Position numbers and translations under genes: made by a program. Positions 2,700-7,271 of a stretch of 8,910 bases of DNA are shown here, in pieces; the first letter of the stretch is position 1, and the number at the start of each line of letters is the position of its first letter. The notes below the pieces were generated by a model, which was not told where the DNA came from, did not search any database, and saw nothing but the letters and a program-made list of their open reading frames with translations. The stretch lies in IMG/VR virus record IMGVR_UViG_2778261536_000007. One strand, given 5' to 3'. The stretch comes from a virus. Taxonomy: Duplodnaviria; Heunggongvirae; Uroviricota; Caudoviricetes.

Positions 2700-3107
2700 A
2701 TGGATACAAGAACCCTGGGCCAGCGAGTTCTGGCGCGACGAAAAGAATTACGCTTAACACAACGAGAAGCCGCGCGCCTCGCTGGAGTTGCTCACGTCAC
2801 AATTTCACAATGGGAAAGAGACGAAACCCAGCCAGTCGGAAAACGATTGTTTGCTTTAGCGGATGCTCTGAAGTGCTCACCTACATGGCTAATGTTTGGT
2901 GACGAAGACAAGGCACCAGTGCCTGCACAAGAACTTCATGTGGAAACAGAGCTAACTCCCAACCACAAAGAATTGATCGAATTATTCGATGCTCTTCCAT
3001 CTTCCGAGCAGGAAGCCTTGCTGTCTGAAATGCGCGCAAGAGTAGAAAACTTCAACAAACTCTTCGAAGAAATGCTTAAAGCGCGTAAAAATAAATCAAT
3101 AAAATAA
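2700..3107 (+). CDS. dicA: XRE-family HTH repressor DicA (cI-like, 135 aa)
   Basis: Classic HTH_3 domain (LTQREAARLAGVAHVTISQWE). 135 aa matches DicA. No SD upstream of the ATG; a TAGAAT -10-like hexamer at 2685-2690 suggests a leaderless transcript. Confidence 0.85.
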   Translation: MDTRTLGQRVLARRKELRLTQREAARLAGVAHVTISQWERDETQPVGKRLFALADALKCSPTWLMFGDEDKAPVPAQELHVETELTPNHKELIELFDALPSSEQEALLSEMRARVENFNKLFEEMLKARKNKSIK

Positions 3108-3141
3108 CATTCTTTTCAAGTGATTAGTTGCGCCCACCCTT

Positions 3142-3163
3142 TTTGTTAGATCAATCTAACAAA
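3142..3163. promoter_or_regulatory. Operator palindrome TTTGTTAGA-tcaa-TCTAACAAA upstream of the dicB operon (OL-like)
   Basis: Perfect 9-bp inverted repeat with 4-bp spacer, same motif as at 2632-2651, lying between the dicA stop and ydfA. Confidence 0.7.
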
Positions 3164-3169
3164 AAACAC

Positions 3170-3198
3170 TTGCCTCTCATGTTAGGTTATTCTAAATT
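3170..3198 (+). promoter_or_regulatory. Candidate sigma70 promoter of the dicB operon (-35 TTGCCT, 17-bp spacer, -10 TAAATT)
   Basis: Hexamers with 17-bp spacing just downstream of the operator; a degenerate operator half-site pair (TGTTAG...CTAAA, 3180-3196) overlaps the -10. Confidence 0.4.
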
Positions 3199-3275
3199 AT
3201 TTTCCATCAAGACACCGCACGGTGTTCTCAGCAAACAGTTCCGCTACCCCGGCGTTAAGGGGAAATGAGGTCAGC

Positions 3276-3431
3276 ATGGATACTATCGATCTTGGCAACA
3301 GCGAATCTCTGGTATGTGGCGTGTTCCCCAACCAGGACGGTACGTTCACCGCGATGACGTATACCAAAAGCAAAACGTTTAAAACCGAAAATGGTGCCCG
3401 TCGCTGGCTGGAAAGAAACCCAGGTGAGTGA
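3276..3431 (+). CDS. ydfA: Small acidic protein YdfA (51 aa)
   Basis: ATG at 3276 preceded by GAGG (5 nt spacer); the track ORF from 3222 starts on GTG with no SD. Size and position match first gene of the Qin dicB operon. Confidence 0.7.
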   Translation: MDTIDLGNSESLVCGVFPNQDGTFTAMTYTKSKTFKTENGARRWLERNPGE

Positions 3432-3432
3432 T

Positions 3433-3561
3433 ATGGATTTCGACACAATCATGGAAAAGGCTTACGAAGAATACTTCGAAGGTCTTGCCGACGGCGAAGA
3501 AGCTCTCAGCTTCAACGAATTTAAACAGGCGCTTTCCAGTTCGGCAAAATCTAACGGCTGA
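3433..3561 (+). CDS. ydfB: Small protein YdfB (42 aa)
   Basis: Not in the ORF track (too short). ATG at 3433 follows AGGTGA with 5 nt spacer. Upstream stop overlaps (TGAtATG). Translation MDFDTIMEKAYEEYFEGLADGEEALSFNEFKQALSSSAKSNG. Confidence 0.6.
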   Translation: MDFDTIMEKAYEEYFEGLADGEEALSFNEFKQALSSSAKSNG

Positions 3562-3590
3562 TAAGCGAAACAGCACCGCGAGGAATCAGT

Positions 3591-3809
3591 ATGCAGAAAC
3601 GAGAACCCGTCATCATCGCGCCAGACTATACCGATGATGAACTTTATGAGTGGATGCGCCAGAAAATTAATGCAGCGCAGGATTTGAAATGGGCCAATGA
3701 AACCAGGGCTAAGCAGGCTGAAAATCTGTCCGCTCTGGAGCAGGATATCACCAATCTGGAAAAAGCAGCGGCATTAAGCATTGCCAGAATGATTACATAC
3801 CCGCGTTAG
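3591..3809 (+). CDS. ydfC: Small protein YdfC (72 aa)
   Basis: ATG preceded by GAGGA with 6 nt spacer. Size and position match ydfC of the Qin dicB operon. Confidence 0.7.
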   Translation: MQKREPVIIAPDYTDDELYEWMRQKINAAQDLKWANETRAKQAENLSALEQDITNLEKAAALSIARMITYPR

Positions 3810-4149
3810 TAGCTAATCAACAAAGCTAAGGTTAGTAATTAAGGAGTTCTCCACGGGTGAGGTGGAGTGCGTGCGCCGGACACGGGTGAGCATCCGGCAC
3901 TGACAGTTTACTGAAAGGATATTTCCCTGAAAAGTCAGACCATAACGCGAAAGCGCACGGCGAGGTAGCTGGTTCATAGATAGCCTGTCGTTAAATTTTC
4001 GTCGACCGTGCGCTTCCGGTTGTGGCAACCCGCGAAATGGCGCGGCGGTAAGTATGGCGGGGTTATTCCTTCCCCGTTGAGGACACCGGGTTGTCAGGTT
4101 GACCATACGCTTAAGTGACAACCCCGCTGCAACGCCCTCTGTTATCAAT

Positions 4150-4202
4150 TTTCTGGTGACGTTTGGCGGTATCAGTTTTACTCCGTGACTGCTCTGCCGC
4201 CC
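4150..4202 (+). ncRNA. dicF: DicF small regulatory RNA (53 nt), processed from the dicB operon transcript
   Basis: Sequence TTTCTGGTGACGTTTGGCGGTATCAGTTTTACTCCGTGACTGCTCTGCCGCCC matches DicF as I remember it. It sits between ydfC and dicB with no protein-like ORF and ends in a GC-rich stem plus T-run. Confidence 0.7.
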
Positions 4203-4207
4203 TTTTT
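4165..4207 (+). terminator. Rho-independent terminator-like 3' end of DicF (GGCGG...CCGCC stem followed by TTTTT)
   Basis: GGCGG (4165-4169) can pair with CCGCC (4197-4201), directly followed by TTTTT (4203-4207). Read-through is needed to express dicB downstream. Confidence 0.45.
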
Positions 4208-4376
4208 AAAGTGAATTTTGTGATGTGGTGAATGCGGCTGAGCGCACGCGGAACAGTTAAAACCAAAAACAGTGTTATGGGTGGATTCTCTGTATCCGGC
4301 GTTAATTGTTAACTGGTTAACGTCACCTGGAGGCACCAGGCACTGCATCACAAAATTCATTGTTGAGGACGCGATA

Positions 4377-4565
4377 ATGAAAACGTTATTACCAAACGTT
4401 AATACGTCTGAAGGTTGTTTTGAAATTGGTGTCACTATCAGTAACCCAGTATTTACTGAAGATGCCATTAACAAGAGAAAACAAGAACGGGAGCTATTAA
4501 ATAAAATATGCATTGTTTCAATGCTGGCTCGTTTACGTCTGATGCCAAAAGGATGTGCACAATGA
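4377..4565 (+). CDS. dicB: Cell-division inhibitor DicB (62 aa)
   Basis: ATG at 4377 preceded by GAGGA with 7 nt spacer; the longer track ORF from 4272 has no start signal. Translation MKTLLPNVNTSEGCFEIGV... and 62-aa length match DicB. Confidence 0.8.
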   Translation: MKTLLPNVNTSEGCFEIGVTISNPVFTEDAINKRKQERELLNKICIVSMLARLRLMPKGCAQ

Positions 4566-4753
4566 ATTCAGCATTTGTGCTTGTTCTGACAGTTTTTCTT
4601 GTTTCCGGAGAGCCAGTTGATATTGCAGTCAGTGTGCACAGGACAATGCAGGAGTGTATGACTGCAGCAACCGAACAGAAAATTCCCGGTAACTGTTACC
4701 CGGTCGATAAAGTTATTCACCAGGATAATATCGAAATCCCGGCAGGTCTTTAA
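4562..4753 (+). CDS. ydfD: Small protein YdfD (63 aa) with N-terminal hydrophobic segment, lysis-associated
   Basis: ATG at 4562 overlaps the dicB stop (ATGA), AAGGA 8 nt upstream. N-terminal hydrophobic stretch AFVLVLTVFLV followed by a Cys-containing soluble part. Confidence 0.75.
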   Translation: MNSAFVLVLTVFLVSGEPVDIAVSVHRTMQECMTAATEQKIPGNCYPVDKVIHQDNIEIPAGL

Positions 4754-4846
4754 AACAGTTCCGTAATAAATATCCGGTTTCATTCTTATATGCCAGCAAT
4801 GGCAGGGATTTGTTCATCCTTAAATCTGTCATGAGGTTAAAACAAA

Positions 4847-5104
4847 ATGAGTAAAGTCTTTATTTGCGCCGCTATTCCTGACGAACTGGCAACAAGGGAA
4901 GAAGGCGCTGTGGCTGTAGCCACAGCCATTGAAGCTGGCGACGAACGCCGTGCTCGAGCAAAATTTCACTGGCAGTTCCTGGAACATTATCCGGCTGCTC
5001 AGGACTGCGCTTATAAATTTATTGTCTGCGAGGATAAACCTGGCATACCCCGCCCTGCCCTCGATTCATGGGATGCTGAATATGCAGGAAAACCGCTGGG
5101 ATGA
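4847..5104 (+). CDS. Hypothetical small protein (85 aa) preceding the exonuclease gene
   Basis: ATG with GAGG about 10 nt upstream. Its 3' end overlaps the beginning of the long exonuclease ORF in another frame. Confidence 0.55.
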   Translation: MSKVFICAAIPDELATREEGAVAVATAIEAGDERRARAKFHWQFLEHYPAAQDCAYKFIVCEDKPGIPRPALDSWDAEYAGKPLG

Positions 5105-7271
5105 GGAGTCTGCTTCTTTTGTCCCGGTTGAGACTGAATCCGATCCGATGAACGTCACTTTTGACAAGCTGGCCCCTGAAGTACAGAACGCTGTCATGGT
5201 TAAGTTCGACACATGTGAAAACATCACCGTTGATATGGTTATTAGCGCACAGGAATTGTTGCAGGAAGACATGGCAACATTCGACGGACATATCGTTGAA
5301 GCGTTGATGAAAATGCCAGAAGTTAACGCCATGTATCCGGAGCTTAAGTTGCACGCCATTGGGTGGGTTAAGCATAAATGTATTCCTGGTGCTAAATGGC
5401 CCGAAATTCAGGCAGAGATGCGCATCTGGAAAAAACGTCGCGAAGGTGAACGCAAGGAAACCGGAAAATACACGTCTGTTGTTGATCTCGCCCGCGCCAG
5501 AACCAATCAACAGTACACTGAAAATTCAACAGGAAAAATCAGCCCGGTCATTGCTGCCATTCATCGCGAATACAAGCAGACATGGAAAACACTGGATGAC
5601 GAACTGGCCTACGCTCTCTGGCCTGGTGATGTGGATGCCGGAAACATTGACGGCAGCATCCATCGCTGGGCAAAAAAAGAAGTTATCGACAACGACCGCG
5701 AAGACTGGAAGCGTATCTCGGCATCAATGCGCAAACAGCCTGATGCCCTTCGCTACGACCGCCAGACTATTTTTGGCCTTGTCCGTGAGCGTCCGATCGA
5801 CATTCACAAAGATCCCATAGCACTGAACAAATATATCTGCGAATACCTGACGACAAAGGGCGTGTTTGAGAATGAAGAAACAGACCTGGGCACTGTTGAT
5901 GTTCTCCAGTCATCAGAAACACAAACTGATGCAGTGGAAACTGAGGTATCTGATATCCCAAAAAATGAAACCGCGCCGGAAGCTGAACCATCTGTAGAGC
6001 GTGAGGGGCCGTTCTATTTCCTCTTCGCAGATAAGGACGGAGAAAAATACGGTCGCGCAAACAAACTTTCTGGTCTGGATAAGGCACTGGCTGCTGGCGC
6101 CACTGAAATCACAAAAGAAGAATATTTTGCCCGAAAAAATGGCACATACACGGGCTTACCGCAAAATGTAGATACCGCTGAAGATTCAGAACAACCAGAG
6201 CCGATAAAAGTTACCGCTGACGAAGTAAACAAAATTATGCAGGCAGCCAATATCAGCCAGCCTGACGCCGATAAGTTGCTTGCTGCATCACGTGGTGAAT
6301 TTGTTGAAGGGATTAGTGACCCGAATGATCCGAAATGGGTTAAGGGGATCCAGACCCGCGATTCTGTGAACCAGAACCAGCATGAATCGGAACGGAACTA
6401 CCAAAAAGCGGAACAAAACAGCACAAATGCGTTACAAAACGAGCCAGAAACGAAACAGCCTGAACCAGTGGCGCAACTGGAAGTGGAAAAAGTCTGCACC
6501 GCCTGCGGTCAGACCGGCGGCGGCAACTGCCCTGATTGTGGCGCGGTGATGGGCGACGCAACATACCAGGAAACATTCGATGAAGAGTATCAGGTTGAAG
6601 TTCAGGAAGATGATCTGGAGGAAATGGAAGGCGCTGAACATCCACACAAGGAGAACACTGGCGGCAATCAGCATCACAATAGCGATAATGAAACTGGCGA
6701 GACGGCAGATCACTCAATTAAGGTGAACGGTCATCACGAAATCACATCCACCAGCAGGACGTGTGACCATCTAATGATCGACCTTGAAACCATGGGAAAA
6801 AATCCTGATGCCCCGATCATCTCAATAGGTGCAATATTTTTCGATCTGGAAACTGCTGGCGGAGTCATTGATCGGGACACCATTAAATGGTGGCTTAAGC
6901 AATCACGCGAAGCGCAATCTGCCATTATGACCGATGAAATCCCGTTAGATGATGCACTGTTACAATTGCGGGAATTTATCGACGAAAACTCCGGTGAATT
7001 TTTTGTTCAGGTTTGGGGAAATGGAGCCAACTTCGACAACACGATTTTGCGCCGTTCATACGAACGGCAGGGGATCCCCTGCCCGTGGCGTTACTACAAC
7101 GATCGCGATGTACGCACAATCGTTGAGCTGGGGAAAGCCATAGACTTCGATGCCAGAACGGCTATTCCATTCGAAGGTGAGCGCCATAATGCACTTGATG
7201 ACGCCCGTTACCAGGCAAAATACGTTTCAGTTATCTGGCAAAAACTGATCCCGAGTCAGGCTGATTCTTAA
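5082..7271 (+). CDS. RecE-like protein (annotated in databases as exodeoxyribonuclease VIII) with C-terminal DEDDh (DnaQ/RNase T-like) 3'-5' exonuclease domain
   Basis: Track ORF 4929-7271 starts on TTG inside the upstream gene; first in-frame ATGs are 5073 and 5082. Middle segment DKLLAASRGEFVEGISDPNDPKWVKGIQTRD resembles E. coli RecE as I remember it. C-terminal about 170 aa carry DEDDh motifs: DLETMG, WGNGANFDN, HNALDDARYQ. Confidence 0.75.
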   Translation: MQENRWDEESASFVPVETESDPMNVTFDKLAPEVQNAVMVKFDTCENITVDMVISAQELLQEDMATFDGHIVEALMKMPEVNAMYPELKLHAIGWVKHKCIPGAKWPEIQAEMRIWKKRREGERKETGKYTSVVDLARARTNQQYTENSTGKISPVIAAIHREYKQTWKTLDDELAYALWPGDVDAGNIDGSIHRWAKKEVIDNDREDWKRISASMRKQPDALRYDRQTIFGLVRERPIDIHKDPIALNKYICEYLTTKGVFENEETDLGTVDVLQSSETQTDAVETEVSDIPKNETAPEAEPSVEREGPFYFLFADKDGEKYGRANKLSGLDKALAAGATEITKEEYFARKNGTYTGLPQNVDTAEDSEQPEPIKVTADEVNKIMQAANISQPDADKLLAASRGEFVEGISDPNDPKWVKGIQTRDSVNQNQHESERNYQKAEQNSTNALQNEPETKQPEPVAQLEVEKVCTACGQTGGGNCPDCGAVMGDATYQETFDEEYQVEVQEDDLEEMEGAEHPHKENTGGNQHHNSDNETGETADHSIKVNGHHEITSTSRTCDHLMIDLETMGKNPDAPIISIGAIFFDLETAGGVIDRDTIKWWLKQSREAQSAIMTDEIPLDDALLQLREFIDENSGEFFVQVWGNGANFDNTILRRSYERQGIPCPWRYYNDRDVRTIVELGKAIDFDARTAIPFEGERHNALDDARYQAKYVSVIWQKLIPSQADS

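Follow-up and report, generated by a model that had tools for sequence, protein, structure and literature searches.

The 340-nt stretch between ydfC and the small RNA DicF contains a covarying and mobile structured RNA module, which we call module B and which is well supported as a discrete part of the DicF precursor and as a candidate for a new Rfam family. It is preceded in the same stretch by a second, hairpin-rich part, module A. We take the stretch as a whole to be the non-coding 5′ portion of the DicF precursor, and at the same time the 3′ UTR of ydfC, in a dicBF operon of the Qin type, with module B acting in cis, and would give this joint explanation a probability of about 60%. DicF is one of the earliest small RNAs discovered in bacteria, and the steps of its processing are textbook knowledge. 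A reading of the stretch in terms of processing is therefore correct but known; what is new is module B as a discrete mobile RNA module. The dependence on RNase III and RNase E comes from published experiments on E. coli K-12, while the anatomy, conservation, covariation and modularity described below were computed here.

The dic locus and the processing of DicF

The window, by which we mean the whole 8,910-nt stretch of phage DNA that was analysed, represents the dic locus of a Qin-type prophage, as identified from its ORF list and from Rfam, with the gene order dicC, dicA, ydfA, ydfB, ydfC, the 340-nt gap, DicF, dicB and ydfD (Table 1). Downstream of ydfD follow a large exonuclease-like ORF, an excisionase-like ORF and an integrase. 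In the region 4847-7271, an 85-aa ORF (4847-5104) overlaps, in another frame, the start of a 780-aa ORF (4929-7271); this exonuclease gene looks intact in the window and is truncated in its K-12 counterpart. The gap between ydfC and dicF has matches in 4429 of the 5426 complete E. coli genomes. K-12 is 99.1% identical over this region, with three differences within 3810-4210 (at positions 3889, 3898 and 3958) and none at all across 3959-4210, so that both its position between ydfC and dicF and its identity to K-12 mark the stretch as the leader of the dicBF operon.

Table 1. Coordinates of genes and RNA features in the window
Feature	Positions	Strand	Basis or remark
dicC	2392-2622	minus	ORF list
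dicA	2700-3107		ORF list
ydfA, then ydfB	ydfB ending 3561		ORF list
ydfC	3591-3809		ORF list
Module A, first hairpin CUCCAC / GUGGAG	3849-3867	+	MFE fold; holds start of 10-codon GTG ORF
Module A, 6-bp hairpin GCCGGA / UCCGGC	3875-3898	+	Exact pairing
Module A, hairpin CUGAC / GUCAG around small GGA..UCC hairpin	3900-3938	+	MFE fold
Long duplex, about 22 bp (3940-3963 with 3999-4025)	3940-4025	+	Folds and alifold on 49 sequences; candidate RNase III substrate
Module B, four-helix junction with pseudoknot	4019-4133	+	MFE fold, covariation, covariance-model matches
P0	4019-4026 with 4126-4133	+	MFE fold of 4014-4149
H1	4030-4034 with 4041-4045	+	MFE fold of 4014-4149
H2	4058-4062 with 4072-4076	+	MFE fold of 4014-4149
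H3	4088-4096 with 4116-4124	+	MFE fold of 4014-4149
Loop-linker pseudoknot, GUAUGG with CCAUAC (in H3 loop)	4052-4057 with 4103-4108	+	Covariation
C/A/U-rich single-stranded linker	4134-4149	+	Unpaired in fold of 4014-4149
DicF sRNA with intrinsic terminator and U-tract	4150-4207	+	Same RNA unit as the 340-nt stretch
DicF core match	4151-4202	+	Rfam RF00039, 76.7 bits
dicB	4378-4565		ORF list

The RF00039 covariance model detects nothing within 3810-4149, even at E-values of up to 10, placing the stretch upstream of DicF and outside that family, and scans of the window and 13 related loci with Rfam 15 assigned no family to module A or module B. Elsewhere in these sequences, the E-value scans matched DicF, STnc100 (sub-threshold), tRNA, C4, IsrK, CssrB and STnc150. 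The sub-threshold STnc100 match of the window lies in the dicF-dicB spacer at 4214-4354 (34.1 bits, with a gathering score of 47), and similar ones were seen at loci L004 and L005 and in P1 upstream of tciA (L001, 4342-4461). A simple scan for sigma-70 promoters on the plus strand within 3000-4800 returned none, and the same scan missed dicBp and the DicF terminator.

In K-12, a 190-nt DicF species requires RNase III, which makes its 5′ end, mapped by primer extension, while the 53-nt DicF requires RNase E, which makes its 5′ end in turn (PMC10448788). That paper, by Ragunathan et al. 2023, cites Faubladier et al. 1990 for both roles and confirms them. No internal promoter was found, the main species in the wild type is the terminated ydfABC-dicF transcript, and in stationary phase the 190-nt species builds up as a stable RNA (PMC10448788). 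The proposal, made in the initial annotation, that the hairpins of the stretch could be RNase III/E processing sites for DicF was right, yet it had already been published for this very sequence (PMC10448788), K-12 being identical from 3959 onwards. The K-12 Qin precursor, which derives from the same locus, does not differ in kind from that of the window: it shares an RNase III-made 5′ end, an RNase E-made 53-nt DicF and a terminator-made 3′ end (PMC10448788, which cites Faubladier et al. 1990). The K-12 DicF papers examined regard the 137 nt in front of DicF as no more than precursor sequence, and describe for them no conserved fold, covariation, mobility or occurrence without DicF.

The sequence given with the primer extension in PMC10448788 corresponds to 3966-4202 of the window. 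Since the 190-nt and 53-nt species share the 3′ end made by the terminator, RNase III cuts about 137 nt ahead of DicF, and the 5′ end of the 190-nt species would come from a cut in the 3′ arm of the long duplex of module A, probably at about 4016/4017. This placement rests on a promoter-like pair, CTTGCC and TTCTAAAT, at about 3169-3198, which points to a transcription start near 3204; with such a start, the position numbered '813/814' in PMC10448788 would fall at about 4016/4017, although the ydfABC-dicF transcript would then be about 1,004 nt long, at odds with the 1,146 nt that the paper gives. RNase E would cut at the 3′ end of the single-stranded linker, at 4149/4150, yielding the 5′ end of the 53-nt DicF; the need for RNase E is taken from PMC10448788, and the DicF model itself begins one nucleotide further on.

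Architecture and covariation of the leader

Folding of 3810-4210, which the initial annotation had suggested, gave -146.4 kcal/mol, with z = -3.19 and none of 100 shuffles as good. The plus strand of the 340-nt stretch has no ORF of 60 aa or more, the ORF list containing a 36-aa GTG ORF at 4008-4118. On the minus strand, a 111-aa TTG ORF (3813-4148) exactly fills the gap between ydfC and dicF; some phage records carry a 'hypothetical protein' beneath the match, the other records examined having no feature there, and substitutions lean mildly towards the third codon position of this ORF in counts that are not independent of each other. In many relatives of 87-99% identity, however, 1-nt indels or stops interrupt it, even more so in divergent ones, leaving 93, 77, 60 or 59 aa in many of the former; the variable length of H2 shifts its frame, and no gene is annotated across the stretch in the E. 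coli genome records examined. The other coding candidate, a 10-codon GTG ORF at 3857 behind the Shine-Dalgarno sequence AAGGAG at 3841-3846, is present as first described, but its start codon reads GTC in several variants, and two alternative 5′-end versions lack AAGGAG, so that neither component is conserved. With neither ORF kept intact in relatives, we see next to no chance that the stretch encodes a protein. Its description as untranslated and structured is right.

Module A (about 3849-4025) is a series of hairpins that closes with the duplex of about 22 bp. The place of its first hairpin is taken in other lineages by a different hairpin-forming sequence, GACCACACG...CGUGUGGUC, while the sequence of 3900-3938 is conserved in the module A alignment. 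The 6-bp stem between them, 3875-3880 with 3893-3898, pairs exactly as first reported; in 49 unique homologues its stem is nearly invariant, its loop is variable and compensatory changes are absent, and in K-12 the substitution C3898A disrupts the closing pair. Such 6-bp stems were found in every one of 300 dinucleotide shuffles of 3810-4149, and this one is therefore not beyond chance on its own. A perfect 10-bp stem is rare by comparison, being reached by only 5 of 300 such shuffles. In the window it joins 3951-3960 (AAGCGCACGG) to 4006-4015 (CCGTGCGCTT), exactly as described, and forms the core of the long duplex, which has the near-continuous length (about 20 bp or more, or about two turns) expected of an RNase III substrate. 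Inside its own lineage, this duplex exhibits only G.U changes among the 49 sequences, making covariation uninformative there. Analogous duplexes of 17-20 bp with co-varying arms are found in the leaders of cdtI, Citrobacter, Erwinia, Izhakiella, Trabulsiella and Serratia; these six lineages have duplexes of different sequence, which end exactly at module B.

The MFE fold of the 136-nt fragment 4014-4149 is exactly the four-way junction formed by P0, H1, H2 and H3, although as a single sequence the fragment folds no better than its shuffles (z = -0.61). In an independent MAFFT alignment of 30 variants, changes on both sides were seen in six of the nine pairs of H3, the pseudoknot was 100% paired, running through the series U:A, U:G and C:G with no C.A combination, and all covariation measures lay above those of 500 out of 500 shuffles. 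A second, model-fitted alignment, which leans towards the model, comprised 40 loci with covariance-model matches of 65-157 bits; 94.6% of its cells pair, as opposed to 36-59% with slid partners, and 13 of the 27 pairs of module B change on both sides. H2 is built from at least eight different stem sequences, whereas H1 is conserved and displays no covariation; the P0 duplex forms in almost all lineages with GUUGUGG, and its support is limited.

The unpaired nucleotides of the H3 loop and of the linker between H1 and H2 are near-invariant. When a scan imposed only the 5′ half of the module, the H3 loop still came out nearly invariant, with four single-base variants, indicating that its conservation is not just an effect of the search. 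In a P7-like module B (locus L021, 4668-4806), a G-rich insertion, GGGGGGGGGGGCGACUCCCUGAC, lengthens H2 and leaves the rest undisturbed, from which we conclude that H2 tolerates insertions. We also considered a tRNA-like element and rejected it: ARAGORN found none, the Rfam tRNA model matched nothing, and the likeness is confined to the outline of a four-way junction.

It had been proposed initially that 4116-4127 (TGACAACCCCGC) may pair with either 4057-4064 or 4087-4096, and that such an attenuator could control read-through into dicB. Both complementarities are indeed present in the window, and the pairing of 4057-4064 with 4120-4127 is complete (8/8) in 31 of 73 unique variants. In the P1, P7, Serratia, Trabulsiella, Erwinia and Izhakiella relatives, however, this complementarity decays to only 3-5 of 8 positions, while the competing hairpin, 4087-4096 with 4116-4125, keeps 7-9 of 10 in divergent lineages, with compensatory changes, and H2 and H3 covary as separate hairpins. 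The linker to the terminator is 25-90 nt long and variable in sequence, with no conserved switching or anti-terminator helix in it; no exclusive pairing overlapping the terminator is conserved, and no Rfam riboswitch family matches. We consider such an attenuator or riboswitch very unlikely. A real mutually exclusive pairing is a different one, in which GGUUGUGG can pair either with CCAUAAC at 3940-3946 or with the strand after H3, forming P0.

Distribution and mobility of module B

Local blastn comparison of related loci resolved the gap into a mosaic of separate blocks. Phage phiSTEC1589-Stx1c carries the module A block (about 3830-4024) without the rest; the reverse case, a module B block (about 4019-4141) with no module A, is seen in phages cdtI, P1 and P7 and in a phage labelled Actinobacillus. 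Pattern scans located module B in more than 100 further viral contigs and in prophages of E. albertii, E. ruysiae, Shigella, Citrobacter, Trabulsiella, Erwinia tracheiphila, Izhakiella and Serratia symbiotica. Most E. coli genomes carry it as well. Its behaviour is that of a discrete cassette, present once per locus and once in the complete cdtI genome, with no copy in the PR operon, and it sits in repressor-controlled early operons beside host-takeover genes, such as dicB, kil and exo.

The 5′ flank of module B is of two types. In P1, P7 and Shigella-type loci, a promoter is located 15-35 nt upstream, and in the other type, module B adjoins the 3′ arm of a 17-22-bp duplex closing a variable insert, with the arms of this duplex differing and co-varying among the window, cdtI/Citrobacter, Erwinia/Izhakiella, Trabulsiella and Serratia. 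Having either a duplex or a promoter just upstream in all cases, module B is never far from a generated 5′ end. On its 3′ side, every downstream variant type inspected has a hairpin and a T-run within about 20-90 nt. This 3′ unit is variable, comprising DicF and at least nine other types, and module B is better conserved than the sRNA part that follows it. In Rac-SA53 and phiSTEC1589, which have no module B, the duplex is joined directly to the linker and the sRNA terminator; since all three of these elements are kept there, module B is not needed for an sRNA of this kind. Shigella phage 75/02 Stx has retained only a 3′ remnant of module B.

The 'dicF-like region' of the P1/P7 ban leader (NC_005856) is homologous to 4030-4126 of the window, with 78-82% identity. 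Like the Qin leader, it has a repressor-controlled promoter before it and an intrinsic terminator after it, but its 3′ unit is a plain GC-rich terminator and it has no RNase III duplex. The Rfam DicF model does not match at this region, which is module B plus a plain terminator, not DicF, and which is situated just 3′ of the C1-controlled Pban promoter. The 'dicF-like' annotation of P1 is thereby corrected, as it marks module B and not DicF.

Several individual loci deserve separate mention. In a Shigella flexneri prophage (L139, minus strand, 963-1578), IsrK (59.6 bits) and C4 antisense RNA (76.7 bits) lie on the same strand behind module B and a degenerate DicF-like unit, so that several non-coding RNAs appear to be strung on one strand. 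The phage labelled Actinobacillus vB_Apl-pPE4 (L004, about 1610-1760) has an E. coli-like dicA/ydaT/kil/exoVIII region, in which the linker and sRNA-terminator unit is tandemly duplicated after module B. Metagenome-assembled genomes labelled Bacillota, Veillonella parvula and Collinsella (L140, L141 and L145) carry module B of P1 or Qin type, essentially identical to that of E. coli, and these contigs have probably been mis-binned. The terminator hairpin behind module B contains, in Erwinia, Izhakiella, Trabulsiella, Serratia and a viral contig (L148, L149, L146, L137 and L059), an SD-like AGGAG with AUG/GUG and UUCU after it; the small ORFs that could start from Erwinia-type terminator hairpins were rejected as short (about 40 aa) and inconsistent between loci. 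About 60-170 nt 5′ of module B, L148, L149 and L059 have a duplex-closed insert with two hairpins, T-loop-like GGUUCAAUUCC and GUUCAAUUCGGAC, which matched neither tRNA nor any other Rfam family. Finally, leaders of the cdtI type (L003, about 1690-1790; L043, L059 and L148) have a second long duplex, ACAACAGAGAAGAGCAUC ... GGUGUUCUUCUCUGUUUUGU, after the terminator, with the look of an RNase III substrate.

Possible roles of module B and its relation to known systems

Three observations constrain the function of module B: the terminator unit behind it, its conservation above that of the sRNA, and its generated 5′ end. In the explanation that we favour, with the probability given above, it is the cis-acting folded 5′ body of the long form of a two-module DicF precursor. 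Cleavage of the 3′ arm of the module A duplex by RNase III, near 4016/4017, would create the 5′ end of the 190-nt species and would free GGUUGUGG (4018-4025) from the upstream CCAUAAC. The freed strand may then pair with GCUGCAAC (4126-4133), so that P0 closes module B into a compact four-helix junction, which would be locked by the loop-linker pseudoknot. Module B would stay joined to DicF within the 190-nt intermediate until RNase E cuts the linker and the 53-nt DicF is released. With its base-paired and nearly flush 5′ end, it could serve as a putative nuclease-resistant handle in cis, which would determine how stable the 190-nt species is and when RNase E releases the variable sRNA. The near-invariance of the unpaired H3 loop and of the H1-H2 linker suggests recognition of a specific partner, going beyond a passive handle.

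A serious rival, to which we assign the smaller likelihood, is that module B is a putative trans-acting structured phage RNA and itself the functional product, which would bind a conserved host protein or RNA, with DicF as its exapted terminator end. In Qin, such a product would be a fragment of about 135 nt, freed by RNase III at its 5′ end and by RNase E at its 3′ end, and in P1/P7 a primary transcript of about 185 nt from the C1-controlled Pban promoter. Such a role would accord with the stronger conservation of module B than of the sRNA on its 3′ side, where at least ten types replace one another, with its discrete-cassette behaviour, with unpaired segments that are near-invariant even when not imposed by the search, and with an H2 stem and loop that are hypervariable, as might be expected of a specificity element. 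In P1/P7, module B begins about 28 nt after the inferred Pban start and is followed only by a linker and the plain GC-rich terminator; it is always found in repressor-controlled early operons near dicB, kil and exo, and the 190-nt species is stable in stationary phase (PMC10448788). On the other hand, a fragment of about 135 nt is not reported, the published probes being targeted at DicF, no partner of module B is on record, and module B always had a terminator unit after it, as would be equally expected of a cis accessory. Put more broadly, module B may tentatively be viewed as an unrecognised and widespread family of structured phage RNAs, putative decoys or modulators of a host protein or RNA during prophage induction, in which case the primary product proper would be the 190-nt species, and the 53-nt DicF would be a piece of its terminator end that was exapted.

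An unlikely alternative, in our estimate, is that module B acts in cis as an antiterminator RNA like put, letting RNA polymerase read through the DicF terminator into dicB, exo, xis and int (in P1, into the tRNAs and ban). It is true that module B is without exception placed after an early promoter and before the first intrinsic terminator, and that the later genes need read-through; moreover, the annotation of cdtI and of Qin-like phages includes no N, and module B is lost or truncated in two N-type phages. The further idea that module B replaces N nevertheless had to be discarded, as the anticorrelation fails in Rac-SA53, which has no annotated N and lacks module B too. This DicA-type relative still has the sRNA terminator in front of kilR and recE. 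In addition, it is termination at the DicF terminator that makes DicF, and in the wild type the terminated ydfABC-dicF transcript predominates (PMC10448788).

Comparison with HK022 bears on the same alternative. Its put RNA is, like module B, a structured RNA in the early operon of a lambdoid phage without N, upstream of terminators, but consists of two stem-loops with a triplex (PMC9378689), while module B joins four helices and adds a pseudoknot. A blastn search of the HK022 genome, put regions included, returned only chance words, and covariance model R1, run with filters off, found nothing above noise, so that module B bears no similarity in sequence or structure to putL or putR. Nor does it have copies in both the PL and PR operons; unlike put, it is a single-copy element, and some relatives do without it.

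A lambda-type nut site was rejected as well. The GUGCUCU(U) stretch upstream of module B, which looks like boxA, forms in every lineage the 3′ arm of the long duplex, and N is not annotated in cdtI or Qin-like phages; a single-stranded boxA, a boxB hairpin and N in the same phage were thus not found together. In the lambda N leader, RNase III cuts a long duplex of the PL leader and remodels the downstream RNA, controlling the translation of N next to nutL. Set against that leader, the window has neither N nor a nut site, and its downstream element is a non-coding module.

Close parallels in processing are MicL, ArcZ, CpxQ and SroC, sRNAs that are cut from longer transcripts by RNase E and among which DicF is listed as the first example (PMC9438474). 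As with DicF, RNase E frees a terminator-bearing 3′ sRNA from a longer RNA; in contrast to DicF, what is discarded on the 5′ side in those cases does not form a structured domain with conservation, covariation and mobility of its own. Core sequence strings of module B had no match in the literature searched, although older dicF papers may already note a conserved upstream sequence.

The DicF locus is present in most E. coli genomes, and module B, shared by P1/P7 and by prophages of several genera of Enterobacterales, now provides a defined object for mutation. Its recognition raises the question of whether the abundant 190-nt species is an intermediate or a functional RNA.
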